A stretch of DNA of 63,929 bases, counting the filler, from Hausera hauseri (lineage: Eukaryota): NCBI GenBank assembly GCA_046269625.1. It is 13 parts of 13 records of this genome, joined end to end, with 100 filler letters (N's around TTAATTAATTAA, not from the genome) between each part and the next. Parts side by side here need not be neighbours in the genome. Positions count along the whole stretch, not along the records: positions 34,392 to 39,357 come from JBJURY010375591.1; 12 more parts are not named here. The stretch is one strand, 5' to 3'. Under the pieces are notes generated by a model that worked only from the letters and a program-made list of their open reading frames with translations, was not told the origin of the DNA and made no database searches. Position numbers and translations under genes: made by a program. Position 1 is the stretch's first letter, and each line of letters opens with the position of its first letter. Positions 11,334 to 63,370 of this stretch are shown here, one piece after another.

Positions 11334-11675
11334 AAGAAAGTTGGAATTAAAATATCCAGATCTTCTCGTGGCACGTTAAAATCCACATTCTTCATTTCCC
11401 ACATCAAAATCACCACTTTTGAATTGTCGAAACCGAATTGTGCATTTTGGTTCTGCTAGAACATGTTTACCATAAGCTTCGACAAGCACTCGATGAGTCT
11501 CAGCTGTACTTTTCTACAAAGGAAACAAAACGTAATGAAATCCGCAAATCATGATTTTCTGGCACAAAATTTTGACATTTTAACGCTATAAACTGTTCTT
11601 GTTTAATAGTTGGAATATTATTTACATCTACAATCGATAACACCAATTGATTTCATTTTTCATTTAATTTTGCTA

Positions 11676-12324
11676 ATGGCTGGGTTTGATCAAGGAGGAG
11701 TCTATTATTCACAACCAATAAGTGCTGAAAACGATTCAGAAAGTTCTCCACGTTCTATTCTAACTAAGTCAAAGTTTAATAAATTTATTAGAACTTTCAA
11801 ATATGGCTCATTTGACTATGTTTATTTAGATGTATTGAAACGCAATACAAACAAAAAATTACTCGATTCTCATAGATTTGGATGATTTGTGTAAATTTGG
11901 TGATAGGTTGTACAACCGTCTAGTATCTAAACCCGTTGCATATTTGCTTTTTCTGGAGGAAGTCGTCAATGCTATTGTCGATAAAGTAACGAAACCAAGA
12001 TTAGACGACACCAAAATACCGAGTATTCAAATACTTTTGAAATGGAACGCAAAACCCGACAGTTTACGAAATCTTGAATCTAAAAATGTAGCCCGATTAG
12101 TAAAGAGTTCAGGAATCTACATTGCATCATCGGATATTCAATCTAAAGCTGTTACACCAACATTGCAATGCCGTGGTTGTCGACAATATTTACCTAATAT
12201 TAACGTTAAAAGTGGTCTGAACGGTTATGTATTACCACGCAAGTGCACTGCTGCAACTGCTAATGTGAGAGTTGGTGTTCATTCTGCAATAAATCCGTGT
12301 CCGGTGGATCCGTATTTTATGTAA
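11676..12324 (+). pseudogene. MCM5: MCM5 N-terminal fragment with a frameshift near an A-run (~11860)
   Basis: MAGFDQGGVYYS...FNKFIRTF...DLDDLCKF...VTKPR...IQILLK...LRNLES..VARLVK..GI...LQCRGCR...GLNGYVLPRKC...CPVDPYF matches the MCM5 N-domain and Zn finger. No downstream AAA+ exons are recognisable in the contig. Confidence 0.9.
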
Positions 12325-13845: not shown

Positions 13846-14260
13846 GCTTGGCTTATGCAATTTTGTTGAGGCATTCTTATCAATAGATCGGTAATTATAT
13901 AGGCTTGGGCTCCAGGTAGATTGTAATAAAATATTTGAAACTTGTATCGGCAGGTTTGTCCGAAATCCAAATCGCAACATTTTGTATGAATTCCGTACGG
14001 AAAATCGCATGTTCTTATTATGAATCTAGTTACAAATATTATTTGAAATTTTACATGGTTCTGAATAGGTTCCCTCGCTTCGAACCATGCACACGGTTTG
14101 CTCTCATCCATATCTTATACTCTAAGTGATTGCAAATTTTGGATATCCTTTCCTCTTGCCGTATACTGTAATTTTTCGGTTTGAGTTATCGATTTCACAT
14201 TCGGTACATACGAAGCGATTAATGATAAGGCGAGGACTATTTGCACATACGTTACCGGTC
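13846..14260 (-). pseudogene. Putative envelope-like glycoprotein N-terminus, in frame with integrase
   Basis: After RYNLRS comes a hydrophobic signal-like stretch VTYVQIVLALSLIASYVPNVKS, then a Cys-containing region (KPCAW, TCDF, KCCDLDFGQTCR) in the same frame past one TAA at 14115-14117. Confidence 0.5.
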
Positions 14261-17200
14261 TAGCCGTTATGATCGATGTTTTCCTTTCTCTGTTTGTATG
14301 CTCATATTTTGCTCTGCAAGAACGTAAATTGTAGCGTTTACTTGGTCTTATCTCGGTTTTAACTACTCTCTGAATCGATGTGACCTCTTCCTTGCCATTT
14401 TTATTTATATAAACTGTGGTCGGTGTAATTTTAGTAACTTCATACGGCCCTCTACCGGTTCTGGTAAGTTTAATAGATGTACCTTTCTTGGCCACTGAAT
14501 AGTGTACGTAAACCCAACTTCCTGGTTCTAGGTAGTGTGGTTTAGCCTTCTTGTAGTATTGTTTCATAAATTGTTCCTGGTAATCTTTATATAATACCTT
14601 GGCTATTTCCCAACACTTGTATAATCTCAATTGTAATACTTCTACAAAGGTCTGCTCCAAATTTTCCGGTTTTGTTCTGTAGGGAATCCATCCTAAATCT
14701 GTAGGCAGTACAGCTTCTCTGCCGTACATTATAAAAACGGAATGAATCCTGTCACAGGATGTGGGGTAGTGTTAATGGCGAATTGTGTACCTTCTAAGAA
14801 CTTGTCCCAGTCTTGCTGGTCCTTTGCGACAACTGTTGATAAGATTCGTGTAACTGTCACGTTCATCCGTTCAACCATTCCATTGCATTGGGGGTGATAA
14901 GCCGTGGTAGTTAGATGTTCAATTTCGAAAATTTTGGTAATTTTGTCCAACAATTTGCTTGTAAAGTTTCTCCCTCGGTCTGCCAAATTTGTTTTGGCGA
15001 TCCGTATCTGCAATAATCTTCCGGACTACTACTTCTGCCAGAGTCTCGGCCTTTTGGTAAATTAACGCTATTAGTTCAACAAAATAAGTTAATCGATTTA
15101 CACAAGTCAAAATATACTTCTTGTTTTTGTGGGTCGTAGGTAATGGTACTACGATATCCATGGACATTTCCTGCATTTGTCTATCCGGCACGCTGATGGG
15201 TGTAAGTTTGGCGATGTAGTTTTTCACTTTTCTTTGTTTGGTTGCGCATACTTCGCAAGCGTTCACCCAATTCCTCACATCGATGTAAACGGTCGGCCAA
15301 TAATATTTATTTAAGATTCTTTCCAAGGTCTTTTTCCTCGACATGTATCGGGCTAAGTACGAATCATGCTCGGCCATCAGTACCTCTGTACGCAATCCCT
15401 TTAGTATGACTACCAATTTTCGTCCTTTCCGTTTGTAGTACAACACACTTTCATGGTTCAAGTCTCCCGTGAAGTGGTATTTGTGGTTGTATCTTCGTAG
15501 GTGTTTTTGTAACTGTTGACCCTTTAGTGTTTTGCTGGTATCAACGAACTCAATAACTTGTTGTATAACTTTGTCTTTTCTTTGTTGGACTGAAATCTTT
15601 AATGTCTTATCTAAAATAAGGGTCCGTTGCCTCTCCACTAATTCTTCGAAGTGGGTTTTCTTAATTACCTTAGCCGCGTTAATTTTTGTCTTAAGTCTAG
15701 AGTGCATTGACATCGACATTTTTATTTTCAGGTTTGTATTGGAATTCGATATTATACCGTGAGATCTCCTCGATCCTTCTGTTAAGTGTACAGGTTAGAT
15801 TATTTGCCCTACCTTTTAAGGTAGTAACTGCCTTATGATCGGTAACGATCACAATCCTTTGTCCATTAACGTACACGTTCAAATGTCGTAATGCTTCCTT
15901 CACCGCTAGCGTTTCTAACTCCGTAACGGAATAGTTCTTATCTGCTTTCTTCAAGGAGCGTCCTCCATATGCAATCGGGTGTTCCAACTTTTCGTCTTCT
16001 CGTTTTTGGGCCTGTTCATATCCGATGCCTTCCCTAATGGCGTCCGTTTTTATTATGAACGGTAGGTTGAAGTCGGGATATCTTAAAACGGGTTCACCAG
16101 TTAGAATCTTTTTCATTTCATCGACGGCTTTCTGTTCGACATCGGTCCATTTCCATTTGATGCCTTTTTCAGTAAACGATACAAAGATGCATTTATCTTC
16201 GCGTTTTCTGGTACATAGGTAGCATAGTACCCATATAGCCCTAGCCAGTGTCTTAATTCCTTCAGATTCTGAGGTCCCATATAGTCCGATATCTTACTTA
16301 ATAGTGATTTATCCGATTTCGACCCCCCTTCTCCAACTATATGTCCAATGTACGACACGGCATTTTGAGCCCATTTGCACTTCTTTGGATTCAGTTTTAG
16401 TCCAGCTTGCTCCAGTCTCATGAGTGTACCTTCAATATCTTTTAAATGATTCGATTCTGTTTTCTGCGTAATCATGACGTCGTCCAAATAGGCAAATGCG
16501 TGCTCCAGTCCCATTAGCATCTTGTTTATCATGCGAGTAAAAATGACCGGTCCGGTAGTTATCCCAAATGGCATAACATTAAATTCGTATATACCACGTG
16601 TGTCTTAAATGCCGTTTTATAATAATCTTCCTTCTCTATCTCTACTTGCCAATATCCGGATTGTAAATCGTGCATGGTGAACCATTTAGCTCCCGAAAGA
16701 CTATCCAAGGCTTCCTTTACTGGTGGTAATGAGAAGGTGTCTTTCATCATAATTGTGTTTAACGCTTGGTAGTCGATACAAAATCGGTGCTTATCGGTAC
16801 CTTTTTTCTTAAACATAAGTATAAGCGAATACCAAGATTTATAGCTTGATCTTATTATGTCGGCCTTTAACAATTGTTAAACTTGCTTAGTTATTTCTGG
16901 CCTTAACGAGTGTGGAGGGGGTACCATTTCGGCATCTTTTGGTCCTCTAAATCTATTTCATCGTTGGACCCCGGCTTTTTCTTAAGTAGGATAGTGAGTC
17001 TTAAGGTTTTGGCACGGCCAATATCTTCATCTTTCGCGATAATCGAGTTATAGCGACAAAGTAATTCGTAAAATCGACAATATGATTCCGGTGAGAATTT
17101 AGTCTTGACGTGGGGTAAAAATTCGGCATTCTTATACTGTTTCTGTTTGATGGTAATTGATGAAACTCTATACGTGTGTCCCCAAGTGGTATTGGCATAC

Positions 17201-18509
17201 AGTTTGGTTGAAGTGGGCGCATTATTCGCCACTCTGATTGGTACGCGGCCTGTTGATACTCTTGTCAAAACATTGCTGAGTACAAGGTTTGGAATAAGCG
17301 ATTGCTTTGGTTCAAAATATACTGTCTGGTCGTCATCTTGACGTATTTGGGCATATATGAGTACTTCAGTTCTTGGTGGTATGTTTTCATTTACTGGAAT
17401 CCACACTTCTCCGAACTTTCTGTCTTTGGTGGTTTTAACCCATTTTAGTGGGCCAAGTTTTATCAACTTGTCTGCATTGAAATCGATTGCTATATTGGGT
17501 AGTTGTCTCAATAAGTCACATACTCACACTACATCATATCTTAATTGCTCCATTACTGAGAATTCATGATGGAAAGATTATCCCATTATGTAAATTTCCG
17601 GTTTCCAACGGAATTGACTTTTCGATGATTGTACGAAGGCTCCTACGCTTCATGGATCCGTTGTGGGAGGCGGATACAATTGTTTCCGTAGGAACTGTGG
17701 TATTGAATCATATTTTATCAGTGACATTTCAGATCCTGTGTCTATTACCGCATATACTTCCCAGTATTCCAACTGAATTTTTGCAAGTGGTCTTCCTTCG
17801 ATTATCATACCGTAATAATTTGGTGCTACTCGAGAGTGTCGGATCGCGGAAACTTTGTAACCGTTAATGGTAACCTCCATAGTTCCAACGGGATGGTCGA
17901 TTAACTGTCTCAGTTCTCCCATAGGGCACAATTCATTATTCCCACCATTCGTGTTTTATATTCCTTGGTTTCTAACTGGCGGCTGGATATCTTGGTTCCG
18001 GAGATTGTGTGGCTCACGGCTTCTGGCAATTATTGACTGCGTTTCGCTTGGTCTAGGTACTCTAGGTGAATAGATTATACCATGATCGTCGACCGCTGAG
18101 CGACAATGTAAAATAAAGGGTTTTTCTACTTTACAGAACACTCCATAGTGCTTCGTTCTTTCGTAAGAATCCTCTAGACAATCTTCATATACAGGTGCCA
18201 TCGGCGGCAGTATTGGTAATGGTAATTTCACAACAGAATAATTTCTATGTCTGTTCGACTTAGGTATAACGTCTCCTCCTTTAGGCTCGTCATTATCTGA
18301 GTTATTTCTTCGTACTTTAGTATTTATAAAATTTCGCTTGAATAGGTACCTTCTTTTACGATTTCAATTTTGATAGCCTACATGCTGTTCAACCTCAGTT
18401 TTCCATCTACTTTCTTCGTAATCCTTTAAGATTTTGCCGAAGGGCGTGATAATTGCCGTCAAAATTTTGCACGAAAATCCTGTCAAGGTGAATATCTCGT
18501 ATCCATTTA
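13846..18509 (-). mobile_element. Ty3/Gypsy retrotransposon: gag end, protease, RT, RNase H, integrase, env-like ORF; many frameshifts
   Basis: AVIDTGSEMSLI (PR); RFCIDYQALN, DLQSGYWQV, MPFG, AYLDDV (RT); IKTDA, NYSVTELETLAV, VTDHK (RH); YYWP...CEVC, DRGRNF, TAYHPQCNGMVER, GPYEV (IN). Confidence 0.95.
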
Positions 18510-23879: not shown

Positions 23880-24182
23880 TAGTGAAAAAAAAATAAAATA
23901 TGGGTGGTGGAGTCTTTCGAGGATGGCGAAAAGAAAAAAAGATAACAATTGTTTAGAGCAACAAGATCTTCATCAGACACATCAAACGCAGAAGACATAA
24001 CACACACTCACGCTACAACAACATCATGACTTTACGCTGGCGATGTAGTTTTAGTGTGTGTTGTCTGTTATGCTTTCTGTGTTTGATGTGTCTGATGAAG
24101 ACCTTTTTGGTCTAAACAGTCGTTGCTTCTTTTCTTTTCGCCAACCTCGTAAGACTCCACCACCCATGTTTTTTTTCTCACT
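23880..24182. repeat. ~140-bp inverted repeat pair, each arm with a hammerhead-like core
   Basis: Arm 23880-24025 is approximately the reverse complement of arm 24040-24182. Each contains CTGATGA-A-stem/loop-TAAAC. Confidence 0.8.
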
Positions 24183-33896: not shown

Positions 33897-35134
33897 TCAA
33901 AGGACTAATTTTATACATTTATTTCATTATATGAATATTATATTAATAAACTTTTTGCTTTTTATATTCAATATCACTATTTTTCAGAACTATTCGATCT
34001 CAGTAAATTGTTAATAATTTATTGATTTGTTCATTACTTTATGAACCATTAGCCAGGGAGTCCAGCTTTTAGTACATATACTTATTAAATGACTCAAGAA
34101 ATCGAATTTTACCGTAAATCTGAATTTTTGTAACAAATATTCAGAGAGATGCAAAGTATAATGCTGATTAATAAAAACAAATCCTTCTTTCATTACTCTT
34201 TTCAACCAACGTTTATCAATTTCCGGTACAAAAAGTCATAATCCTAATATATGTAAAATTTATTAACATGAATAATAATAACGGAAATACANNNNNNNNN
34301 NNNNNNNNNNNNNNNNNNNNNNNNNNNNNNNNNNNTTAATTAATTAANNNNNNNNNNNNNNNNNNNNNNNNNNNNNNNNNNNNNNNNNNNNGAACGTTGA
34401 TAATGGTTTTCTTGATAAGTCCAAATTCTTTTTGGAAGTAACCAACTCTGAAATTTCTATTTTAATTGTAATATATTGTTAATAAAATTAATAAATATTT
34501 TGTAGGGGTCGAATGAATCTACTTTTATGAATCATCATAACATTTTGTATTTGTATCACTGATTTTCATAAAAAGCCTTATTAGAAATAAAATCCCATCC
34601 CTGACAAAGTTTCGATGATTATTGAATGTATCGCATGATGTAGCTGACAAAACGTTTTATTTTAAGACATAATGTATGTACTTTTCTCTTGTAGGGTTCT
34701 GAAATTGTGGATCCAGAACCAGCTAAGGTAAACAGTTTTGTTTCTGCCTCGTTTCATTCCCATTGGAATTTAGTGACAAAATGTTACATCATGGGTTCAA
34801 TGGGGTGAACACCATATACTTTTGTTTTTAAATAAATGAATAAACTTTAAGACTCAATTTAAAGTGGTTGAAACATACCTCTAATGGTGTCACCCGTTTG
34901 CTGTCAAGACTTTTATTGGTGCCGAACACGCTATAAGGCTATTGTTTCCCGACCTACATTTTTTGAAGTTTAATTGAAACTAAATTCAACAATATTGTTG
35001 TGTCACATGAATTTGATCTAGCATCCTAGTGTTAGAGTTTATTAATCAACATATTACTCCCTACAGCCGGAAGACCGGATTTCAAATACTCAATACAATC
35101 CCAGAATATGATATAAATACTGACAGTAAATTGG

Positions 35135-36292
35135 TGATAGTAGGTAGAAGTGAGCTCTCCACCACACTTCTCTGATTGGTCCGCCGACCAGTTTTCCCCA
35201 CTTGATTGGCTATTCTGAACATTTCACTAAGATTTTCGCACGACCCCTCCCCCCAGAAAATGAGGTCGAGCAGAGGTTCGGGTCAGGTGATATCGATAGC
35301 GCGTGACAAGGGGAGCAAAAGTTAACAAAGGTGCGGCTTACAGAAATGTAAGCCAGAGGCGTTAGAAGAGGAAGAAGCAAAACAGGAAATGCTCCACGTG
35401 TAACAAGAAACATGTTGCTGGCACTGCGAAAATGTGTACAAGGGGTAAATCGTTATTAGCGATTGAAATGGCACTGTTGCAAGTCGGTCAGACCATGGGA
35501 ACATGGGGAAAAATTGATGCGAAAATTTCAAACGGGTAAAATTTCCCAATGTTCAAGTCTGCCGATTGTGGAAATTGGTCTAATACATTGCCCATAAACT
35601 GAGGAAATTTTCACATTATAGCCGCCTCACTATCAGACCAATGGATCGGGGTGAAAAATGCAATCAAACGAACGAACGAACCAACCAATCAAAAAAGCGC
35701 AATGTTAAAGTCAAAATCATGATAGTAGGTAGAAGTGTCCTCTCCTAATTACTTCCCAAAAAGTGTTCAGATTGAGCTGGAAACCAGTTTTCCTTACCTA
35801 TCTCGCAATTCTGAGCATTTCATGTTTTGTGGTCGGAGGCCCCCAGCCGGAAGCACATGTCACATGTCGCACATGTCACCGGCGGAAATCGGTGGAACTG
35901 CATGAGGCGAGAAAAATTTTCTAGCGCGGCGAGTCGAAAATACTACTGGGCGGCGATAGAAGCAAAAGAAGCAAAACAGGAAATGTTTTATGAGAAACAA
36001 GACACGCGTTACGAATTGCGCAATGTTTGGTGCAAATGTCAAATCAATGTCTGGGAATCGAATGCGCACAATTTCCACGTTGTCTGACCATAGGAACATG
36101 CGGAAAATTGATGGGGAAATTTCAAATTCTAAAAATTTTCCATTGTTCAAGTCTGCTGGTTGTGTAAATGGGCTGAGCACGTAGCCCATCAGTAGTTGAG
36201 TATTTCCTATTGTAGCCGCCTCACGATCAGACCAATGGATCCCGGTGGAATATGCAAGAAAAAACATTGTTAAAAAGTCAAAATCATGATGA
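35135..36292. repeat. Diverged ~585-bp tandem duplication next to the Polinton capsid module
   Basis: Both units start TGATAGTAGGTAGAAGTG (AGTAGG at 35139 and 35724). They share GAAGCAAAACAGGAAATG, TGTTCAAGTCTGC, TAGCCGCCTCAC, ATCAGACCAATGGATC and AAGTCAAAATCATGAT. Confidence 0.85.
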
Positions 36293-36389
36293 TCATCATA
36301 ATCATAATTATCATTGTTGTAATTGATGATTGCGTTCGTTCGTTCGTTCGTTTTGTAAAAAGTCGTGAATTTTATTTTGTACGATGAAC

Positions 36390-36910
36390 TCATAATTGAG
36401 TACTACTACTCCCAAAGAGAATGATTGTGACATCATAATATTTGTCATGATTTGTTCGCTCTTTGGTACACAAAACAACAGTAATAAAATAATACATATT
36501 TCGCAAAAGTGATTGTAATGTTAGCCACAATAAGAAGTAATGTCCACATAGTATAGCCATTGGATGTTGATAATGAACTCGATTATATTCTGAACGGTAT
36601 GATGATGATTGTCGTTCAATTTGAGAAACTAATGATGACGGATAGTAAAATCCGAGCGGATCGAATTTTCAGACGACGTTGGTCGGATGGTGGACGTACA
36701 CAGCAATCCAATGTTCGCATGGCAACGATGAAGTGTGTGTATTGACAATAAAGCCGCCAGTTTGTCGTGAATCATGCGGCACAAAGTCCAGTGGAAACAC
36801 GCCACGAAATTTCACGCCCAAGAGCAGTTTTCCTTAGTGACTGAGCTCGGTGGAGCTAAATTTGAAAAATGTGATTTAAGTATAATAGTAATAGCAATAA
36901 ATAACTTTAT
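36390..36910 (-). pseudogene. Polinton adenain-like cysteine protease (PRO) with a predicted 50-nt intron at 36856-36905
   Basis: FRGVFPLDFVP...FIVNTHTSSLPCEHWIAVYV...FDPLG...YQHPMAILCGHY carries the His/Asp/Gln/Cys catalytic residues. Start is mutated to ATA; two internal stops. Confidence 0.9.
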
Positions 36911-36938
36911 AGTACGACGGTGAGAAAGCGGATTTTAT

Positions 36939-38154
36939 TTATACAATGACGGTTCCGTTTTTCGTTATTTCAACATCCGCATCAAATACACCGTAAATGT
37001 ATATCACGGTAGATTGCTCCAACGCTTTAACAAAGTCAACCTCCAGTCGTAGGTTTTCCTGCTGAGGTAGTTGAGTCTGTTCAACGTCATAATCCGGAGC
37101 CAGGACAAAAGTGAAGAATGGGTAGGTGGACTTAACCAAATCCATCGATATGCCATTGTTGATGTTTTTGTTCAGCAAACCCATGTTGCGCCCAATAGAT
37201 TGCATATGTGCAAACAATCATTAAACTCAAAGTCTTGTTTGTACATCTCAACGAAATCCGCATTCCGACCCAAACTTATGTAATTCACATTGCTATGGGT
37301 AAACGTTTCCGAATCGGTGGTATAACTGCCCGTTTGTTGAACAGTCGTTTACAATGTAACGAGCACAAATTTTGGCAATCGGATGTCGCCAAACAGTACA
37401 TCTTTATTAAACATAGTTGAAACTTTGGGTATGGTGTAAAAGACGAGTTCTGTGCGTTATATCGGGTAACATGCATTTTGCGTTTCCAAGCCCAATTGGT
37501 GTCCCATGAGCACAGATGGTTCTACCTTTACACGAGGTACGTATAATCGTGCCTCGGTAATTTTCAGTATGGGGTTAAGATTTGCAACTGCAGTTTTCAA
37601 ACAAGACTCGCTGCGTTTGAGCCGAATCATGGCCTTAACACCGGGCAATAGGTATGTCGGCTGACCGAAAGTCAAAGTACAGCGGTCCACACATTTTAAG
37701 TGCTTTTGATTCTGCCACTCGTCTGATGGTTTGCTGCATTGGTGTCAAATCGGATGGTTTTCGTCAAATGAGTCGTTTTCGTGTCAGTACTATAATTCAG
37801 GGCCGTTTCAATGAGTGCTTTGATACTGTATAAACTGGTATTGCCTTTGATTTTGACGCTGTTTAGAGTCAGTGAAGCCTCCTGGAACAGTGAGAGGAAA
37901 AGGTAATTGGTTGGTGTGACAGTGTCTGTTGGAGCGAGAACCGTTGATGCATCCTTTTTAACAATGACTTTTACATGGAGTAGCGTATTGTTCAAATCCA
38001 GGTATTTATTGTCCGATGTTATAATGTTGAATTGAATGTCTGTTATCATCCGTTGAAACCGAATCAACGGGTAGATTTCTTCAAATGCCTCATTGTCAAT
38101 AACGTGTGGCGCGCCTTTGTCAAATATACACAATTCAGATTTTGCAGATGCCAT
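36939..38154 (-). pseudogene. Polinton major capsid protein (PY, double jelly roll), frameshifted
   Basis: KSELCIF...EEIYPL...IQFNI...YLDLNNTLLHVKV...PTNYLFLSLF...IETALNYS; QPTYLLPGV..MIRLKRS...ARLYVPRVKVEP...YPI; FFTFVLAPD...NLRLEVDF...YGVFD. Confidence 0.92.
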
Positions 38155-38177
38155 TTGTCTACAAATCAATCAATTAA

Positions 38178-38498
38178 TCAATCGAAAATCATACGACGAC
38201 GACGTTTGTTTGTAGTTGATGAGCTCGATGATGCTGTATGGTGTTTTCCCATCAAATCACTGCTAGCGAATTGTTTTTTGACTGATTCAACGACTCCCGG
38301 TGCAGCGCTTTTTATTTCCGACAACAGGTACGTCCTGTGCTGTTTTTGCCGCCACGGCTCCAATACGCTTCAACATCGGAAAGGCTAAACGTGCCAATAT
38401 ACGCAACCATCAAGAGCCATACTGTTTACCAACGAAATAGGCAGTTCACCGCCTTGCCGGGGTTTACTGTAAATTGAAACGATTTCAGAATCAATCAT
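38178..38498 (-). pseudogene. Polinton small basic core-like protein (pVII-like), frameshifted
   Basis: MIDSEIVSIYSKPRQGGELP/YFVGKQYGS*WLRILARLAFPMLKRIGAVAAK...KRRRRMIFD; lies between penton and MCP. Confidence 0.7.
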
Positions 38499-38531
38499 GT
38501 TGTTGTTCTAGGATTCGACGGAAATGAAACG

Positions 38532-39357
38532 TTAGACTGGTTGTGGTACCGTACGGAAATTCAATAAGGTAGATCGTGTAACATCGAATATTCACTTGAA
38601 CATTGTTTATAGATGTAGATGCCACAGGTAGGTGACATTGTCGCTAGCAGTATACTTGCTGCTTTCCGGATAAATTGCACGGAGTAACGGTACACGTACT
38701 CCATCGACCAAAATCGGTTCGGTGACGTTCACGTAAATGTACATTTGACTTAGACTAGTTTTCAGTTTGGGTTTAAGTGTTACATGTGCTGCCGCCGCCG
38801 ACGATGCCTCAAACCGCTGTTTTTCAAAACCCTATACCATGGCCAAAGCTTTGTCCAATGAAATGTCGACAATATCCTTAGCCGTTCAAATTTAATATAA
38901 CAATTTGCATCTGACTCGAAAACTGTAAAAATCTTGTACTTTTGATTTGAAGAAGTGTTGACAGAGATGTGCTACAGATTCGTAATAGACATGGTCTCCA
39001 ATCGATGCGTATGACGTTGGCACCCTTTCTGCTGTATAGGTAAATTTCACCGTTGTCTGGTAATATACGGGACTCAATCTTGGACCAACTACATATTCAC
39101 TTTTATTATGTTTACATTTGTACTCTGTATTTTTGAATCCAAATTTCTGCGCCATCTCAGAGGACTCAAAGGTAAATTCAAAATCTGCCATAAAATGTAA
39201 GTTTTCTAAAATAAAAACACCGATTTTGCCGTGTGAACCGTAATTTGCTTCGGTCGTGCAAATGGCCGATTCTCCAACTATTATTTTATTGTTAGTAAGT
39301 GTCAGAGGACAAGAATGTGTTTTGGTTTCAGTAACAGTCTTGTTGTACGTTATTTTC
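38532..39357 (-). pseudogene. Polinton minor capsid/penton (PX), 3' part
   Basis: QMYIYVNVTEPILVDGVRVPLLRAI and terminal LNFR motifs, directly upstream of core and MCP. Confidence 0.75.
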
Positions 39358-39874: not shown

Positions 39875-42562
39875 TTATACGTCACGAGTCTTTTGTAGAT
39901 TATTAATTACGATTGTATTCTTTACGCACATTATATGGAAATTTACCAGAATTTTATATTTTTCCATCTCGTTAAATATTTCTCGGTTCTGAACAGCCAT
40001 TTCTTGAGCATGCTGGGTTTCTTTCGATAAAGCAATGTTCAGTTTTTTCATTTTGAGAATAGCAGTATCATATTGTTCTTTAAATTTCTTCAATTCATCC
40101 AACTGGCACTGGACATTATCCAGAACGAAGATCTGTTTTTCAAGCTTTTCTTTTTGCGCCCGGGTAGAGTCAAATTCAGTTAGAGATTTCTGCCAATCCG
40201 TATGGAGTGATTTGTATTTATTCGTCAATGTTTGGGTCTCTGAGTCTTTATCGAGAACTGCTCTTTCCAATCGAACCTTTTTTTCTCTAATACTTTCAAT
40301 TTCCTTATGCTGATTCTCATTCAATATCCGCAAACGATCAATTGATTTAATTTGCTGTTGTTCGTTGTCATGACAAGTAATCAACTCCACTAAATGAGCA
40401 TTATTCAACATCTGTTCTCGTTCGTCAAATATTCTAACTTTTTACTCCAATTCTTTTAATTGATTCTCCAGTTTCTCTCGTTCGCCATCCGAACATTTCA
40501 GTGTTATATAGTCGTTGGATTTGCTCATTTAAACATTCAATTGATGTCAGGTACTTTTTAATTTCAACATCAGTCGATTCTTTCAGTTCGATCAAACACT
40601 TTTCCGTTTCACTTTTGCTCGATTTGGAATCATTCAATTTGGTTTAAAGACTGTTGTTTGAACATTTTAAATTGGCCACATTTTTGTTGATTTTCTAATT
40701 CGATTCGAAGTCTTACTTTCGGAGAATGAATCACATAACTGTTGTTGGCACGTATTCATATCCATCTCAATTCGGATAAATTTATCACCGAGTTGCTGCA
40801 GTCGCTTTGCCATATTTTTCTCTTCGGTATTTTTCCGTTTAAGTTGTGCACCAAGTTCTGATATTCTCTTCTCCTTCGTTTCCAGCGTAATTTGACAAGA
40901 ATCCAGTTTACTCAACAAATTCTCGCAATCTTTTTCTTTACTTTTCAACTTAGTTTCACAATCGGATAGTTTCTGATTATGAGTTTTTTTATCTTTCACC
41001 AATTTCATCTCGTTTTTCACTTGCCCGTCATCTAATAGTGCACTGGAATATTGATTACGTAAATTTTCGTTTTCATCAGACGGATAGTTCATTTGTTTAC
41101 GTAAGATCCCACTATCATCTTTTCCCAACAAATTCTTGTTTATTCTATCAATAATGTTATCTGTTTCAGCAATTTCATGTTCAAACGAATCTCGACGTTC
41201 AATTTCAATTTCTACTTTACCAATAGCTTCCGAAATTTGTTGAATTTTACGTGTATAACACGATGCATTTGATTCCAATTCGGATAATTTCAAATGAATA
41301 AATCCGACTTTCTCGTCGTATTTTATTGCGGCATGTGAAATCAATTCTCTGAAATCGGCATTCTCATCGCGAATTTCAAATCGTTCTCGAATGAACTCAA
41401 CAAATTCCGATGTAACAAACTGTTGCACTGAATAATCATTCCACCGCAATCATTTCGTTCATAATCTAACAAAGCCGAACACAACTTTTCGATTTCGATT
41501 AATTTCTCTTCGACATCTTTATCACGAATTTGTCGATAGTCTTCAACACCCCATTCGGCTTCTCGACATTCTTCAACTAAATACGTTTCTTTCTCTTCGT
41601 GTCTCTGTCGCCAATCCATTAAATCACTCTGTAATTGATCTCGCTCTTTTTCCAATGCCCGAGAAATATTTCGACTGTCTTCAATCATCTGTTCAAGTCG
41701 CTTAATTTGGTCATCTTTCACCATTAATAAATCGTTCGTTTTTTTTAAATTCGAATGTAAACTTACGTTTTTGTCTTTCTGTTTTTCAACGATACTTTCT
41801 AAATTTTTTACCAATTCCACCCTGAAGAACATTTTTCGACTCAATTTGTAATAACAATAAATCGGCTAATTCGTTTGAAAATGAAGAGATTTTTGACAAT
41901 CGATTAAAAATCTACAGAAACATTGACAGAATAATTACGTTTCATTAATTTTTGACACTTCAAACAGATGATAAGGTAGAGAGAATAAGCATATTTTCGT
42001 CTCGTCAATTAGAAAATAATCCGGCAACTTATTCTCATCAGAATTGACTTTGGCCAATTTATTCTTTAATCCTTCAATTTCAATTGTCAGACGATTGTCT
42101 TTCTCTTTTCTTACGGACAGAATTTGAAATCACATTTAAATCCATAGTTCCATCAATAGACAAACTCAAATCAACATAAGAATCATTCGTATCAATAGAA
42201 ACAATGCCAGATACTAATGATTCCAATTCATTTATTCGTTTGGATAAATTGTCCACAGTAACATTTTTGCTATTATTTGACTCCTGTAAACAACCAATAT
42301 TTTCCGATAATTCAATTTGTCTATCATAGGCGATTTTACAATTATCAACCTTTTCATGGAGCATATGTAGCTGTTTTTCATAGTACGGACTACATTCCTT
42401 TTTAACAATAGGTCGTTCTGAGGGTGGATCGAGCATGTACATCGTTTTGAAATATCCTATTATGTTCAATAATGTTTTGAGTGAATGTAAAATAACAGCG
42501 GTTGATCGATTCAGAAATTCATTAAACGCATCGTAAAATCTACCATAATTGAACAAGAGAAA
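39875..42562 (-). pseudogene. Long coiled-coil protein coding region, broken by frameshifts and stops
   Basis: Consecutive E/K/L/Q-rich heptad ORFs: 42080.., 41341-41844, 40667-41449, 40434-40637, 39875-40411. Confidence 0.7.
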
Positions 42563-44739
42563 ATTGGAAGCAATGCAGCTGCATTGACCCGCATCGTCAG
42601 GCGTAATATCCATTATTGTTAAATAATAGTTTGGAAAATCATTTATTATTTTCATTCGTTTTCTTGAGTCTTTTTGACTAAGTGTTTCCCCATTCCGTGT
42701 CCATAGGATTTTTGGTTCAGGTTCAGTGACAAGTCTACAATTAAATCGAATACTGTCGCCTGAGCATAAGTTAGCAGGTTTCGGCTTTTTGATGAACATC
42801 GGTGCAATGCAGCAGGATTCTTCCAATTGGTCTAATGAAACTTGGCTGGATGGAATAGCACTCGCTTGTTTTATATGAAGTCTACCGTCACTCTTTACGT
42901 AGCCCATATCGTTCGCCACTTTAATTGAATACTTTCCAACATGTTTTATTGAAACAGACGGAATTGTTAGCGCGAAGAAAGTCTCATGTGACCACTGAAT
43001 AAATTCCGAATCTTCTATCGGTATTTCTTGATCTTCAAAGTACCAAACCGATTTGGTAACACCACACTTTTCAATTTCATTTTCAAATTTACGAGTCATC
43101 TTCCTTTTCTATAGTTATATCTCGTAATGGATTGACCATTCTTGGTGATATTAAACACTGAAATATATCTTTCGATTGGACCTTAACAATTCTTTCTCTG
43201 ACATGAACATCAATATCGACAGTCTCATTATCTACTTGAATAGAATATGTACCACAATCCTTTAGTTGAATATTTGACAATAACAAATTATAACATTTCG
43301 GTTGCGTTACTAATGTCAAATTCGATTGATCTTCATTAATAGGCACACCATCTCGTAGCCATATTGGTTTACCAAGGGAATTAGTAGGAATTTCTGTTGA
43401 CACAGATAATTGTAATTCTTCGCCTTCAACAAGATCTACTTCTTCCACAGTACATGATAATAAGTTCCATTTCTTTCCATCTTCCTTCTCGTCTTCAATA
43501 AATGATACCATAACATCAATCGAATTCTTTTCACCATTTTCATTCACTACATTGCAGGTATACATACCTTTATGTAAGTTAGGAATAATATTTTCGATAT
43601 ATAAATCGGTAAAAGAACTCTCTGGATTATACGGACCTTCACATAATTTTCCATTATGTAACCATTCGATCGTGGGATTTTTGGGATTAATAATCTCTAC
43701 GGTAATTATCAAAGGTTTAGCCGACGATGCTTTGATATTTGTCGAAGAAACAATCAGCTTCAACACGTCATCATGGTCTTTTTCTGAAGACTGTTCAGAA
43801 ACATTCGATTCAACTGTCAGAACAAACTCCACAACACGAGATGATTTGTCGCTAACGTACATACAACATTTATACACTGGGCTATCATTGAGTTCCGCAG
43901 TATCCTTTTGAAAAATAAATGTACCGTCAACAAAACTTGACTTAAATTTAAAATTTGTGTCTACCAGTTTGTTGTCAATTGACCATAAGGCATGAGTTTC
44001 CTGTGGTTTTGCAGAAACGTTTAAACACAGTTTTTGCCCTTCTTTAACCGTTACGACAACTGTCTCAATTGATGCCGTTTCCATAGCTTTTGATTGAATA
44101 TCTAAGGTAGTTTTTGCATAGAGGACGTTTCCATTTTTACATTCAATTTTGCACTCATATATCCCTTTGCGTTTCGCACTGCAGTTGAAAATTTTAAGTT
44201 CAGCAATACGCCCATTTTCTACAATATCTGTAATAATTTCACGAGACATTTCAAGTATTTCAGAATTATACCACCAGGTAATGCTGAAGTGAGTGAGAGG
44301 ACACTGGACAAAAGCTCTTAAAATAACCGATTCACCTTCTTTAACGGAGTAGAGCTCTTTTTCGAACTTGATACTACCTTTTGCCGAATCATTGATTCCA
44401 ACTACTTTAATCTGAATTCCAACTTCCACAGATAATTCCTTATTAACAAAACCCTTGCACAGGTAAGAACCCTCATCTTGTTTGACTATTTTATCTATCA
44501 ATAACATTGAAATGTTGTTGTTAAATTTTTCAATCATTCTAATATCTCGAATTAGCTTTTCATCATCGGCGGTTTTCATCGTCCACTTAATATCCTTTTC
44601 CAAAAATCCCTCAACTTCCACACATAACGTCACGCAATCGCCTTCTGACGCAACTATGTTACTTTCTAAAGGATATAAATTTCTTTTAATTTTTTTGACG
44701 TTCAAAAAACATTTTCCCAAAACGGCGGCTAATCCAGAT
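42563..44739 (-). pseudogene. Titin/obscurin-like tandem I-set immunoglobulin domains (~7), frameshift near 43095
   Basis: Repeated V.EG..V.L.C / W..NG / D.G.Y.C patterns: DEGSYLC, KGIYEC, KGMYTC, DCGTYSI, VGKYSIKVAN, APMFIKKP...PEPKILWTRNG...DAGQCSCIASN. Confidence 0.85.
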
Positions 44740-45049
44740 NNNNNNNNNNNNNNNNNNNNNNNNNNNNNNNNNNNNNNNNNNNNTTAATTAATTAANNNNN
44801 NNNNNNNNNNNNNNNNNNNNNNNNNNNNNNNNNNNNNNNGTTTCAATTCATCCCTCCACACGCTCAAGCTAACTTCCACTCTGCTGTAAGAAAGATGGTG
44901 GGATGGAGGTTTTGATCGCTAAAGAAGGATGGGAGTGGGAGCTCTCCGTCTCTCCTGCTGCCTTTTTTCACATCCCAACCGCACTCTCAGGTGTGTAAAC
45001 TTTACCACGTTTGGCTCCATGCAACAGGAACCACAAGGGGCTACAGTGC

Positions 45050-49299: not shown

Positions 49300-49532
49300 A
49301 TAAAAATCGTAACAACGGCATAACGATGGATGATTTCAAAAAGAAATACCCGTTTTTCACCTTTCTTCGGGCTATAGATTTTGATATTGAACAGACTCAG
49401 CTTCCAAAAACCGGTAATCTCAAATTGGACGGCCGGTTCCACAAAGAGTTGGCTGAATCCATCAGCATGTATGTATACGGTATATTTGATTCAACAGTGA
49501 AAATAACCAACATTAGTCAAATTATTGTATAA
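49300..49532 (+). pseudogene. Polinton major capsid protein C-terminus (second, divergent family)
   Basis: YPFFTFLRAIDFDIEQTQLPKTGNLKLDGRF...YVYGIFDSTVKIT aligns with the 36939-37217 product YPFFTFVLAPDYDVEQTQLPQQENLRLEVDF...YIYGVFDADVEIT. Confidence 0.9.
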
Positions 49533-49558
49533 ACAGGAATATATATAATCAGCTTTAT

Positions 49559-49762
49559 ATGAAGTAATCACATAATCTATCATGTTAAATTATTATTAGT
49601 TGCAGTACATTTCAGATTGAACGGCAACTAACTCATTTACTCGGACTTGCGAATTTTAAAGGTGTTTATGCATTGGAACATCATCCGGATTACTTGACGC
49701 AAGGAGCATATGTTGTATACACACATACATCAAATTTACCAGGAGAGCATTAGATTGCAATA
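49559..49762 (+). pseudogene. Polinton adenain protease N-terminal part with a predicted 42-nt intron at 49564-49605
   Basis: Spliced: MN|TFQIERQL...NFKGVYALEHHP...AYVVYTHTSNLPGEH*IAI; the C-terminal half is deleted. Confidence 0.85.
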
Positions 49763-50179
49763 TGTTTCATCGATTTTGAGGCTCTCTATCATAATGATGG
49801 ACAATATATTGTGAAAGTGATGTGTATTATGAATGTTGACAATATGTTTTATCCGCTGCATTATGTTTTCAAACCGATATTGACGTGGAATAATTTGGTA
49901 AAAAGGCACAAAACATAAATTTGTATCTAATGAGTCATCGGGTTAAACTGGCTTGGGAAGATGGATGTATTGGATGATGTATCTTATTTTATTAATATGA
50001 AAAAAACACTGTTTTATGTGAAAGACCACACCAATGGACAGAAAATCAACACACTTAAATCGTATTTTCCATCATTACGAATTGCGAACTATTTTGCACA
50101 TGAGTTGAAGACAATACCAGATAATATTTTATGTCCATATACCGATCATGGATCAAAATGTGCCTATAAAAATGTTTAG
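49763..50179 (+). pseudogene. Polinton-associated DEDD-exonuclease-like gene remnant
   Basis: FIDFEAL...YIVK.MCI...HYVFKP...W..L; LAWEDG; FYVK...QKINTL; CPYTDHGSKCAYKNV. Confidence 0.6.
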
Positions 50180-51559
50180 TGTTGTCTCAGTACTATTTGC
50201 CCTGTAAATAAGTTTTGGGGTTTATACATATCTTTGACTAGTTTGACTTTTTTTAAACATGTATATTTTGGAATGTAATGTTTAAATTAAAGAACTTGAA
50301 CGCTTTAATGAAAGTGTTGTTTACTTTTACAACGCTGTATAAATATCTTGTCTTTCCTGTCTACGTTTATAAAATTTTTAATTCATTTACATGTGCACAG
50401 ATTCTTCTACTTTCTCCATATTAATTAAAATACTATAAACGTCTAAATTATGATTTAACTCCTTTAAAACTCTCTTAATATATAATGATAGATGGTTAAA
50501 GAAAGAGAGAACACCATTTACATAAATTTGCAATATTTTTGGAGGAACAACATCCAAAATGCAAACCTTAGTCATTCAAAATGCTACTAATAATCTCAAT
50601 TTATTTGACCAGCATTTTCTGTTGTTATCAGTAATAGTTTATTATGGCAATTTTTATGTATCGCTACATTATTAACCTGTATAATTTGAATTTACAATAG
50701 GAATCGGTGTGTGCATTTCCTAATAATCGAAGGCCACAAATCGACGAAAATATCAAGTGATTCGCAAATATAGGTACTATTTGCAAATGTGTCATCATCA
50801 TCATTACATTTATTTTAAAATAAAGATTTGAAGCACGTTTTAGTCGTTTCAAATACGATGTAGTGTTAAAATATCTTAAATTTCATTGCCCTATAACTTT
50901 TGGCCATGCACATAAGTGAACACAAACTATATTCGATAGTATTTTACTTATGTCGGATTTTCAGTTTGTCGTTCATGTTATGTCTAATTCGTCTAATTAT
51001 CAGTTACATCACTAACATTTCTTCATTCTATATAAATATTAACATTACACATGAATGATAACATGCTATGACTCAAATATTAAACATATTTTCAGTATGA
51101 AAAATTTTGCTTCGTTATTATTTTTATTACCATCAATTAATTTATTAAAACTTATAACGTTAAATGAAAACAACTAGAAACATTGAAATTGAATAGAGCC
51201 ACTGTCCAAATAATCATTTTCACAAAAATAACAGAAGTTGATGTGACTGACCCAGTTATTTCCTTCACTGGTACTATTGCTATCAAATCGTACAATTAAT
51301 GATAGCAAACACAACTCGATGTGAGAGAAAACGAATAAAACCAATATCATATATAAAAATAATTTACACTGTTTCAAATTATTAAAAATTCAAAACCTCT
51401 AATGGCAAGTAGAGATGTAAGCATTTTTTGTATTATTATTATTTTATTATTATTACCTTTTTACATTCATTGAATGAAACCACTCACTTATATTTCAAAG
51501 AAACTCGCTGGAGAACTAATTGTTATACATAAAGTGTTTATATACAAAACACACCTAAT

Positions 51560-54001: not shown

Positions 54002-54154
54002 CACGTTTCTATGGCATGATTCGATGAACGTTAGTTGAAAAGAGTAATGAAAGAAGGATTTGTTTATGTTTAGTCTTCAAAACTAAATTGAAACAAATCC
54101 TTCTTTCATTACTCTTTTCAACTAACGTTTATTCAATCATGCCATAGAAACGTG
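54002..54154. repeat. Foldback palindrome (64-bp arms)
   Basis: 54002-54065 is a near-perfect reverse complement of 54091-54154; a partial copy lies at ~34175-34250. Confidence 0.9.
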
Positions 54155-58602: not shown

Positions 58603-58744
58603 GTCGTATTCACCACTGCAGGTAATTCGTAGATCAACTGTAACACTCCGATTGGCCCAATCAGATTTGATCATGGTCAAATCTGATTGGATCAATCAGA
58701 GTGTTACAGCTAATTCTCACGTTACCTGCGATGGTGAATACGGC
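58603..58744. mobile_element. Palindromic ~142-bp MITE (Harbinger-like termini)
   Basis: GTCGTATTCACCA...TGGTGAATACGGC; self-complementary about a CATG centre at ~58671. Confidence 0.7.
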
Positions 58745-59589: not shown

Positions 59590-62500
59590 AATTTTTACTA
59601 CGGCAACAAATACGATATTGCCAACTGCGTGGCACCTATTACTAATAGCACAGCTGCCAACACCATATTTAACACAAACATTTTGCATCAAATACCACCT
59701 AGTCACAACAACTTTTCTATAACTTATACCTCAACTGCATCCAGTCACGATACATCGACACCATCGGATAATTTTTCATCCTTGTCTTCTGATCTAGAAC
59801 AATACATTTCGTCTTCCTGCACGCGTCTGTTGCAGAAGGATAAATCATTTGCACCTCCTCAATCCACCTTTCGTCACATAGTAACTGCACATAAAAGACC
59901 AATACGGCAAAAGGTTCGCCCGATGTCGCCTCGACGCAGACAAGCAGTGGGGGCTGAGTTTCTCGACCTTGAAATATCAGGCATAATCAGAAAATCCAAT
60001 TCCCCCCGGTCTTCACCATTGCATGTAGTTCCAAAAAATGGCACCTTTCGCCCATGCGGTAATTACCGACAAATAACACCATGACAACAATGGATGCCTA
60101 CTCTTTACCATTAATCAACGATATTCTACACAGACTTCATGCTTTGACCATCTTTTCCTGCATTGATCTACACAAAGCATACTACCAAATTCCGGTGGCC
60201 ACAGAAAACATTCCAAAAACGGCTGTCATTACACCTTTTGGCCTTTTTGAATACCTCTTCATGCCTTTTAAACTCCGTAGCGCGTCCCAGATCTTCTAAA
60301 GGCATATCGATACAGTCCTATCAGGCTTAAACTTCGCCTATCCCTACATCGATGATATCTTAATCGCATCATCTTCGTCCAAACAACACTCTGAACACTT
60401 ACGTTTAATCATCCAGCGCTTACACCAAAACAATTTGCAAATTAACTTCTCCAAATGCTCCTTTTTCAACATAAGGCCAACTTCCTAGGACATGTTATTA
60501 GCTCCTCCGGACATTCACCTCAGCCAAACCACATCACACAGCTAAAATCATACAACTACCATGTACATAAACAGAGATGCGTTCTTTCCTCGGAACCTTG
60601 CACTTTATTCATAATGTCGTTCCGCACTGTTCTACTCTAACCGCCCCATTTGCATCACTAAGCTCTGGCAAGAAGAAACAGCCTATTTAGTGGACCGGCA
60701 ATTTAGTCAATGTTTTCGATCGTCTCAAAAACAATTTGAAAACTGTGGAAATACTGGCCTATCCAGACTCCCATGCAGAACTTTTCTTAACTACCGACGC
60801 ATCTACAACAGCTGCAAGTGCTGTCCTCCATCAAGTTAAAAATGGATCCAATGAGCCATTGGAATCCATTTCTCGAAAATTCACAGCACAAGAGCAAAGA
60901 TATTTTACCATTAATGGAGAATTGTTTGCAATGGTCCTTGCCGTCAAACACTTCAAACGTCTGCTAACTGCACGAACTTTCACAACACAAACAGACCACA
61001 AGCCCTTGCTCCAAATTCTCACCATGAAATCGCCTTCTCCGTGTCAGGAGAGGCAAATATCGCATTTGTCAACGTTTAATTTTGTAACTAAATATCTAAA
61101 TGGATTCGACAATTTAGTAGTTGACTTTTTGTTCCGATCGGTCAGCTCGATTAACTTTACACCAATTTTTCCTCAATCCAAATTTCAGCAAAACCAGCTA
61201 TCTCCTGACATCCTTAAATCATTTAAGTCGTGCTAAACCATCGACGGTGTGGTCTTCGACACCTCCAAACCTAATAATCTCAAATCATTCTTTCTGAGTC
61301 GCTTCAAAAGGAAGCCTTCTACAGCGTACATTCGTTTCATCACCGTGGTGCCAAGTCCACTGTTCGACTCTTGCAACGCCAAGTAGTATGACCGTCGATG
61401 CGCTCTGACGTGCCCTCATGGGTTAGGCAGTGTGTGGCATGCCAAAAATACAAAGTTACTAAGCATCTAAAGCCACCACTATTTTATTTTCCTGCACGTC
61501 TCGTTTCGAATCTGTTCACATTGATCTTGTAGGCCCATTACCCTTAGACAACGGTCATTAGTTCATCCTTACAATGATGGACCGTTCCTCGCGATGGCCA
61601 GAGGCTGTCCCGCTTCGGAGCACCAACATAGAAACCATTGCAGATGTTTTCATCCGCACTTGGATCAGCAGGTTTGGATCACCTCGGCACATCATTTCGG
61701 ACTAAGGCCCACAGTTCGAATCCAACCTGTTTAAAGCTCCTGCTAATCGATTGGGAATTAACCACATTCACACACCCGTATATCATCCCCAGTCAAACGG
61801 CCTTCTTTAACGCTTTCATCGAATAATAAAAACGTCTCTTAAAATTCTTGCTGAGTCCAATCGCAATTGGACTACACTCCTTCCTTGCGTTCTGCTTGGC
61901 TGACGGAACACACCATTTACTTCTACAGGCTGTTCGTCTGCAGAAGCATTATTTGGCACTTCCATCAGATCATTATTCGAGCTAACTGAGCTGGACAATA
62001 CTCCTACAGACAAAACCATACAAGCGGCACACAGACACTTCGTTGAGATTAGCAAAGACTCATTTCGCAGATTGTTACACGCAAATAAACCCTACATACC
62101 CGACGATTTATATACTGACAAGTTTATTTGGTTAAAGAATCAGACGCCGTGTAGATTTCAACCACAGTATGTCGGCCCTTACAAAGTAATTCGCTTACAC
62201 TCCAATAACATCATTCTCAAAGACGAGAAAGAAGTAACCGTTCACATCAATAATGCTAAACCGGCCTTTTTTATTGACGACACGTCTCCCGTTGAAACTA
62301 CGTCGCCACCAACATCTCTGGGCAACGCGCAGCAATCCAACAACTCACCTTCCATCTCTGCTCAATGTCTTAAGCCACTCTCCCTTACGTCTTCTCCCAA
62401 AACTTCCACTTCAATTTCTTCTCACAATTCAGCCTCTTTCTCCCCATCCGATTCTGCACCTTTAATCCTTTCACCACCTCCTTCGTCTCCTCACAACAAC

Positions 62501-63370
62501 CTGCTTTATCCTTTTACAGTACTTCCTCCACAAAACACCATTTCGACTTTACCAATCTCTTCATCTACAACTTTCATCACTCTAACCTCTTGCACACCAC
62601 CCTCCAACTACTTTCCTTTGCCATTTTCTCGCTGTCTTTCGCCTTGTACCTCTTCGCCGTCTCCTCTTTCTCTCTGTCCCTCTGTTTCCACACCTTCCTC
62701 ATCCTCGGCGCTTTCTTCCTGCCTTTCTTATCACACATCATCTTTTCTCCTTTCGCTTCCACTTCGCAACTTCCTCCTCTCTTTACCTCTTTTCCTATTC
62801 CTTTTACTCTCTCTACTACAACTTCCCTTTTATCTTCCACTTCCACTCTCTCACATAATTCAATTCCAATTTCTACTCCAACTTCTTTTTCTCTTTCTTT
62901 ATCCTCCACTACACCTGTTATCATCCCTCCATCTTCTAATACTTTCTTGAGTGCCTTTAACCATCTGTCTTCAATAATCTCACTTCCTCTTTCACCTTCT
63001 TCTTCTATTCTTTTTGACTCGTCTTAGCATCACACAACAATAACAACAAAATCTGACTATTTTTCCCCAACCTCAAACTCTGAAAATAAACACACAGCAC
63101 AAAGACAAAACACGCAGAGTCGCATTCAGCAAGTATAGCAGGGAAAAATCACTGGAAGGAACCAAACGTCTTGTCCACACTAAGACCGACTGACACAGAC
63201 ACTTTTTCGTTTTACAATTTTTTCTCTTTTTTTTACCCTTCATAGTTTTCACTTTGCCACGGCGGGTGATGTGGTGCCTACAGCGGACGGCGCCCTCTAG
63301 CCAATTTGTTTGGACACGGCCGAGCGTCCGTTGCCGCCGCGTCGGGCCCATAATCGGGCCCAGATTTCCA
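59590..63370 (+). mobile_element. Ty3/Gypsy retrotransposon (RT, RNase H, integrase, long 3' region, 3' LTR); degenerate
   Basis: SSPLHVVPK...RPCGNYR; IDLHKAYYQIP...KTAVITPFGLFEYLFMPF; YIDDILI; LTTDAS; TDHKPL; VHIDLVGPLP; YVGPYKV; LTR-like segment at 63270-63370. Confidence 0.95.

Follow-up and report, generated by a model that had tools for sequence, protein, structure and literature searches.

The comparison of two Polinton copies with their relatives points to a real, old intron in one core gene, the adenain-type protease gene, of a clade of intact elements. With a probability of roughly 0.88, this is a true spliceosomal intron in a protease mRNA, which host polymerase II would transcribe from a promoter located where the capsid gene ends. 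The new aspect is the single intron in codon 2 of the protease, together with a promoter-like motif, in Polintons, whose core genes are usually called intron-free and on whose transcription there is little in the literature searched. The families within the intron clade are 46-69% identical, and the retention of the intron across them would imply that a virion gene depends on the host nucleus and spliceosome. The predicted junction is an RNA-testable marker of late, virion-type expression.

Two copies of the split gene

The window, i.e., the whole stretch of 63,929 nucleotides of Hausera hauseri DNA that was analysed, is made up of 13 short contigs (4-6.5 kb each) with N spacers between them. 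Copy B of the protease gene lies within a decayed Polinton tail on the minus strand of contig 34392-39357, and copy A on the plus strand of a separate contig (49300-55048).

In copy B, a 50-nt GT-AG intron at 36856-36905 (GC 18%) interrupts codon 2 in phase 2, as an earlier, sequence-only reading had proposed. Exon 1 (36906-36910) spans codon 1, which does not read as a start here, together with two bases of codon 2; it occupies the same position in the relatives L001-L007 and L010. Exon 2 (36390-36855) opens S-T-E-L directly after the interval and is of the adenain type, with the His, Asp, Gln, and Cys residues present; in-frame stops break it twice, at residues 7 and 62 of P0001, and its frame overruns the end found in relatives. 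On the minus strand, no ATG occurs between the stop of the major capsid gene (MCP) and the FRGVF motif. The MCP itself (36939-38154) is decayed and aligns in four pieces with three frame changes and two stops in one piece. Its stop codon (36939-36941) is separated from exon 1 by a 28-nt spacer and is overlapped by an ATAAA(T) motif, a candidate promoter element, at 36937-36942, 32 nt before codon 1. Copy B is a dead fossil. A direct repeat of ~305 nt (35358-35663 and 35952-36257, 72% identical) lies just downstream of its protease.

Before the MCP, alignment with the relatives outlines a small conserved ORF (38178-38498, minus strand), which is frameshifted and presumably core-protein-like. 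It is preceded by the remains of one or two genes of ~340-350 aa (38512-39357, minus strand, the contig ending at 39357), which have no family match and are, from their position, probably of minor capsid type. Two tandem genes of that size, of probable minor capsid type, stand before the small ORF in L006 and L007, and one in L048.

Copy A has its intron, as had likewise been claimed, at the same phase-2 position of codon 2. Its contig begins within the MCP, of which the 3' end is present (49302-49532, stop 49530-49532), and an ATAAA(C) motif at 49529-49534 overlaps this stop, 30 nt before the start codon. Exon 1 (49559-49563) is the start codon, at 49559 and 26 nt after the MCP stop, plus two bases. 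The GT-AG intron follows at 49564-49605 (42 nt), and an alternative in-frame acceptor AG at 49599 (36 nt) fits too. Exon 2 (49606-49765) opens T-F-Q-I, has one stop, and comprises the N-terminal half only; in place of the missing C-terminal half, the frame continues into the adjoining gene (49766-50191, plus strand). The latter is the gene that follows the protease in relatives; it has an IDxEG motif and no Pfam match, and we take it to be exonuclease-like. A deletion has fused the front half of the protease to it. The divergence noted between the two copies was borne out, as their proteins are 49% identical over shared columns and their intron interiors 51% alike, against 52% for shuffles.

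The intron among relatives

The survey covered 47 loci, 43 from a metagenome scan and four distant ones from a viral scan. A script anchored 35 of these, and two of the anchored loci (L011 and L012) start inside the gene, which leaves 33 informative loci; these two and the 12 unanchored loci, 14 in all, are excluded from the counts. By eye, five unanchored loci (L026, L036, L037, L041, and L042) have an in-frame Met, and the other seven are cut, shifted or distant. Scans of viral contigs gave only the four distant proteases (27-30%), and further such scans were empty. The contigs of genome bins gave no match when searched with the protease; the capsid found three, L048-L050, which are Polinton contigs misbinned in bacterial genome bins and of which only L048 extends to the protease.

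The intron is found at the position of copies A and B in eight of the 33 informative loci (L001-L007 and L010), which represent six families and five assemblies by contig prefix. All eight follow the pattern start-NN|GTAA...[CT]AG|Y, with a length of 37-43 nt and a GC content of 9-22%. When both window copies are included, GT..[CT]AG is present in all ten intron-bearing elements and a GTAA donor in nine, and the lengths across relatives fall in all three phases. Removal of the interval puts the start 17 residues before the FxGV motif in nine of the ten elements and 18 residues before it in copy A, and hence the frame is colinear with the intronless homologues. The remaining 25 loci are intronless and have an unsplit in-frame ATG 15-24 residues before FxGV, the distance being also 17 residues in L008 and L009. 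The one base after the AG completes codon 2, as Asn in nine of the ten elements and as Tyr in L010. The loci L006 and L007 are 99% identical, and their introns differ by 2 nt in length.

When the stretch from the MCP stop to exon 2 was shuffled, the start-NN-GT...AG pattern arose in 31 of 20000 shuffles for copy B, 24 of 20000 for copy A, and 1-15 of 20000 for each of the eight relatives. The same search produced two false intron models among the 25 intronless loci (L039/L040; 76 nt, 38-41% GC, beside a good ATG). Compared between families, the intron interiors show no resemblance beyond that of shuffled sequence (43 pairs, z -2.2 to 2.9), and TNAY words (2-6 per intron), looked for as branch points, are too common in AT-rich introns to discriminate.

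Exon 2 is open and conserved, with a dN of 0.02 vs a dS of 0.25 between L003 and L004 and a dN of 0.21-0.50 vs a dS of 1.37 to saturated between families; the protease of the relatives is under purifying selection, and these relatives are intact. In L001, L002, L006, L007, and L010, the MCP and the genes around it each form one long ORF, and in L007 the protease alone is split beside five neighbouring single ORFs. Hence, the intron is a property of intact elements, and there is no second one in the parts covered.

The products of gene callers carry traces of the same arrangement. For example, P0003, P0007, and P0014 read E-V ... F-S, as expected from reading through start-AA|GT ... AG|, and the read-through signature is seen in P0010, P0012, P0014, and P0037 too. 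Due to the intron in codon 2, annotation based on ORFs mis-starts or truncates the protease, and ORF callers have mis-started P0003, P0005, P0006, and P0014.

Family B was also followed in run X1, which may be the source sample and is then not independent of the window; 18874 of its contigs aligned at 80% likeness. Where the sequence-only reading had supposed a lost ATG at codon 1, the other family B copies do have a start codon (131265.5 of 132179.5 summed depth, 48 contigs). Since ~99% of the depth from other copies has this start codon, the missing start of copy B is private decay. The donor of the family in X1 is like that of the other nine elements (133421 of 133458 summed depth, 59 contigs). 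Among the 15 joints listed, of 41 in X1 contigs of the DNA type, none skips exactly 36856-36905, which is uninformative on RNA. The proteins P0003, P0005, and P0007 are 75% identical to copy B, and in them the gene caller read through the interval.

The protease and its elements

In adenovirus, the adenain coding sequence is uninterrupted. The protease described here shares with the adenovirus proteinase (PDB 1NLN/1AVP) the fold, the His-acid-Gln-Cys arrangement, and the location of the gene directly after the major capsid gene, but has about half its length. A profile of the relatives' proteases (A2) matches 1AVP (E 4.7e-7). The L048 protease passes PF00770, whereas P0001 alone scores 13.7, below the cut-off of 21.3. 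The model of P0041, a natural unsplit relative, has a pLDDT of 96.5, includes a helix at residues 3-17 (pLDDT 95-98), and matches 1NLN with a TM of 0.79. The MCP of copy B matches the L007 MCP at 47-58%, and the model of the latter (P0174) matches the double-jelly-roll capsids of PBCV-1, iridovirus, and mavirus (E 1e-15 to 1e-12).

The contigs of these elements are 1-14 kb long. The intronless L048 combines in one contig a long polymerase-like ORF, an A32 ATPase, an rve-chromo integrase, the capsid, and the protease, and its integrase and A32-type ATPase pass Pfam. Within the intron clade, the integrase is represented only by its chromodomain end, in L007, and the contig of copy B ends before the integrase and ATPase. 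The ORFs of >1070 aa in L007, L010, and L048 match endonuclease VII only, with none matching in NCBIfam or PDB sequences, and the putative label pPolB2 is taken from size, position and papers. A third Polinton fragment in the window (4780-6333, minus strand) has a decayed pPolB2-like gene with an endonuclease VII domain, at 36-43% to L003/L007/L010. Core genes without introns, a phrase that is descriptive and not a formal criterion, does not describe these elements, as the protease is split in ten of them and the other covered genes are single ORFs. Among the 120 capsid clusters listed, 62 have at least 51% identity to L007 over nearly the full length, none of them informatively named; by these clusters, the intron clade looks large.

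History of the intron

The tree of capsid plus protease (35 rows, rooted on L032/L039/L040) places the ten intron-bearing elements and the intronless L008 and L009 in one clade (100/99), in which the rows of A and B have long branches and under half of their columns filled. The mapping of the intron onto an MCP/protease phylogeny, which the sequence-only reading had called for, thus leads to one clade. The intron-bearing rows as such are held together in 0% of 200 bootstrap trees, and the AU test does not reject a tree in which they are (p 0.22). The protease-only tree of 63 rows likewise has one clade (88/81), consisting of seven DNA-confirmed rows, six with the signature, four truncated, and four unsplit (L008 and the protein-only P0015, P0039, and P0041); the intron signature is found in 0 of the 42 rows outside this clade.

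The family of L008 and L009 (L008:1506 and L009:344) is intronless within the intron clade, and its protease starts right after the capsid stop, colinear with the spliced form. The intron is dispensable, since L008/L009, P0015, P0039, and P0041 are unsplit within the clade. These intronless members reflect either precise loss or early branching, and for L008/L009 a precise intron loss is possible from the sequence. A single gain with some losses is the simplest reading, and the intron was probably gained once. The claim of an old, conserved intron of a virus-like clade, as opposed to a chance insertion, is therefore supported, with the addition that some members of the clade, namely L008/L009, do not have it.

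The capsid-protease junction and its motif

The distance of about 30 nt between the MCP stop and the protease, which had been remarked on for both copies, is correct for B (28) and A (26). The idea of such a spacer as a trait of the clade was rejected, as the gap is +1 to +4 nt in the eight other intron-bearing loci. In all 21 measured intronless loci (of 25), the protease start overlaps or directly adjoins the MCP stop (gap 0 to -14), which it does in none of the ten intron-bearing elements.

The motif ATAAA(C/T) is present 30-34 nt before the start in L008/L009 and in nine of the ten intron-bearing elements. In A and B it shares bases with the MCP stop, and elsewhere it lies within the last capsid codons. 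In the outgroup, it is at -68 to -80 in 19 of 23 loci. Taken over a range of 25-82 nt, which was picked after seeing the data, ATAAA[CT] is found ahead of 21 of 25 protease starts and also ahead of 17 of 24 starts of other genes, compared with a background of 11% in random windows. It was also observed 30-80 nt before the starts of the capsid, the small ORF, the protease, and the following genes (L001-L030, L048, and both window copies). The motif is a candidate for an element-wide promoter motif; since it usually lies well inside the upstream ORF, a promoter function is more likely than a role as a poly(A) signal. In our view, it resembles a TATA box and a forkhead site; as a TATA box, it would leave a leader of no more than 0-5 nt.

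A TBP-like gene (PF00352, E 2e-10 to 7e-13) is encoded in eleven outgroup loci (e.g., L048:10246-10698, L013:3766-4206, and L020:2435-2914); the loci of the intron clade, five of which span protease to polymerase, gave no match to it. The literature search found no study of a Polinton TBP. It is conceivable, though unlikely, that these elements form a widespread, so far undescribed Polinton clade in which protease expression has been rewired. Such a clade would have given up the stop/start overlap and the element-encoded TBP-like factor that its relatives have and moved ATAAA(C) to 30-34 nt before the start, and host splicing of a cap-proximal intron would license the protease, and with it virion maturation, only in the cells or stages in which splicing occurs.

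Proposed expression and alternative readings

In the favoured reading, a Polinton lineage of the Maverick/adintovirus type would have gained one short U2-type intron in codon 2 of its protease and carried it along through element replication while the families diverged to about 50% protein identity. The protease would have its own host polymerase II transcript, initiated from ATAAA[C/T] as a promoter element within the capsid gene or at its 3' end, and the host spliceosome would join the five-base coding exon to exon 2. The spliced product would be an adenain-fold protease of 111-118 aa with codon 2 preceding helix 1, whereas translation of the unspliced RNA would end after Met-Lys or after Met. 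The low cost of the intron, its place at the 5' end, and a possible benefit to export or expression probably account for its persistence. Nonsense-mediated decay is not triggered within a zone of 50-55 nt; in a read-through capsid mRNA, the junction would be 6-33 nt after the capsid stop, so that the RNA would be spared and the intron tolerated.

It is barely credible that no splicing takes place and that the AT-rich stretch acts as a spacer between the genes or as an unspliced N-terminal extension, with translation starting at an in-frame or downstream Met or at a non-AUG codon. An in-frame ATG that needs no splicing is available in L001 (27 residues before F) and L006 (38), where a hydrophobic leader is possible, but is missing in the six other loci and in both window copies, and the 2-nt change in length removes the L006 extension in L007. 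The N-termini of the read-through forms are open in P0003, P0007, P0012, and P0014, which would suit an extension, and copy B has no start codon; against this, the places of start-NN-GT and AG are fixed, and chance would produce the pattern with a probability of 5e-5 to 1.6e-3 per element. In 8/8 intact intron-bearing relatives, exon 2 has its first Met downstream of the catalytic His, and hence a downstream start cannot yield the enzyme in them. The expectation that no start follows the AG is accordingly upheld for these eight. In family B alone, a downstream start is conceivable, at an internal Met that precedes FRGV by four residues (P0006 and P0008); a start there would keep the catalytic residues and lose helix 1. 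A different and still doubtful proposal accepts the intron as real and has it kept as a regulatory valve, in which retention gives Met-Lys-stop and the efficiency of splicing sets the timing and amount of protease, replacing the coupling by stop/start overlap. The restriction of the split to the protease, with five single-ORF neighbours in L007, and the loss of the MCP stop overlap in 10/10 intron-bearing elements are in line with this. So is the stop at codon 2 or 3 of unspliced RNA in 9/9 elements with a start codon, yet AA plus the GTAA donor produce such an early stop by themselves, with no extra selection shown; moreover, the intron interiors are not conserved and some members of the clade manage without the intron.

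The common position of the intron in 10/10 elements of one clade also speaks against the idea that introners or chance insertions entered separate copies independently, after integration, at one site, which is scarcely probable at all. Introners do colonise eupolintoviral elements of dinoflagellates (excerpts of PMC12166617), and the intron interiors here are unalignable. However, the intron is common to the high-copy family B (18874 X1 contigs) and to intact elements with saturated dS, and there is no shared intron sequence of the kind that a young introner family would leave; between families, the interiors are unrelated and not members of one repeat family. It is very improbable, too, that the acceptor mainly serves an upstream donor, as in an adenovirus-like late leader, a capsid-protease fusion or a trans-spliced leader, with the local donor being secondary. 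The adenovirus protease mRNA is made by alternative splicing next to hexon, which counts for this possibility. Fusions of hexon and adenain have also been suggested for adintoviruses, via frameshift (excerpts of bioRxiv 10.1101/2024.03.25.586562). The last 40 MCP codons, however, have no shared phase-2 GT (1 site in 1/6 elements), and a spliced capsid-protease fusion was rejected for want of a shared donor. The spliced leader of flatworms ends in AUG, and a leader with this end would be out of frame at the acceptor, whereas the local start-NN-GT is kept everywhere.

Comparison with known elements

The comparison draws on partial texts of the papers cited in this section, to which the statements apply. 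Intact vertebrate Mavericks are reported to be without introns (Barreat and Katzourakis, 2021; PMC8097293). The vertebrate Mavericks/Polintons have the same set of capsid, adenain-type protease, integrase, ATPase, and polymerase as the elements described here, most copies being decayed, and no viral particles are reported for them (PMC8097293). In nematode Mavericks, the core genes are described as intronless, with introns only in host-derived cargo (Widen et al., bioRxiv 10.1101/2022.07.12.499685), unlike the relatives described here, which have the intron in a core morphogenesis gene (compare also PMC10748475). The core genes are the same, and the nematode pPolB2 class has an HNH-type nuclease domain (Widen et al.; Jeong et al., PMC10748475), comparable to the endonuclease VII domain inside the long polymerase-like ORF of our relatives. 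The genes of EMALE virophages are likewise reported to be intronless (PMC8547959).

Adintoviruses/Eupolintoviridae share the order of a hexon-like capsid followed by adenain, and the chromodomain integrase (Starrett et al., PMC8502044; Buck et al., bioRxiv 10.1101/2024.03.25.586562). They were detected by tblastn and by arrays of ORFs >100 aa (same sources), and the partial texts mention no splicing of adenain; the protease here is very short (about 112 aa) and is mis-started by ORF callers. The introners in eupolintoviral elements of dinoflagellates are similar in being spliceosomal introns inside Polinton-like elements, and are described as mobile repeats, mostly post-integration and scarce in coding regions (PMC12166617); the protease intron, in contrast, appears as one old, sequence-saturated intron at a fixed codon. 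Group I introns are found in cryptophyte PLVs (PMC12220804). A spliced protease goes unmentioned in the partial texts of PMC8502044, PMC11296320, PMC10748475, PMC6431247, PMC5803895, and bioRxiv 10.1101/2024.03.25.586562. No earlier report of the protease codon-2 intron, or of the motif, turned up in the literature searched, which did not extend to subscription papers, Repbase, supplements or Kapitonov and Jurka (2006); the last three may contain a prior annotation.

Other contents of the window

A titin-like gene of the Ig I-set type and, after it, coiled-coil ORFs whose frames shift, with no clear introns, occupy 39875-44783 (minus strand). Host intron sizes were sought for comparison, and the junctions in this titin-like contig gave no clear intron. 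An N-terminal piece of MCM5 (11610-12324, plus strand), with one frame change and no evident intron, adjoins an LTR element and is possibly a processed or captured copy; its named matches are two only, both from cestodes (44-52%), a weak hint at the host lineage. From the titin-like gene, the MCM5 piece, and the LTR-retrotransposon pieces, the host is probably an animal, though the contigs may come from more than one organism. The remains of LTR retrotransposons lie at 9077-11321, 61043-63358, and 13846-18509, with a likeness of 74-84% between the first two. Three further places (23891-24176, 54002-54154, and 58605-58742) have long inverted repeats, 140-290 nt in size, which may be MITE-like.
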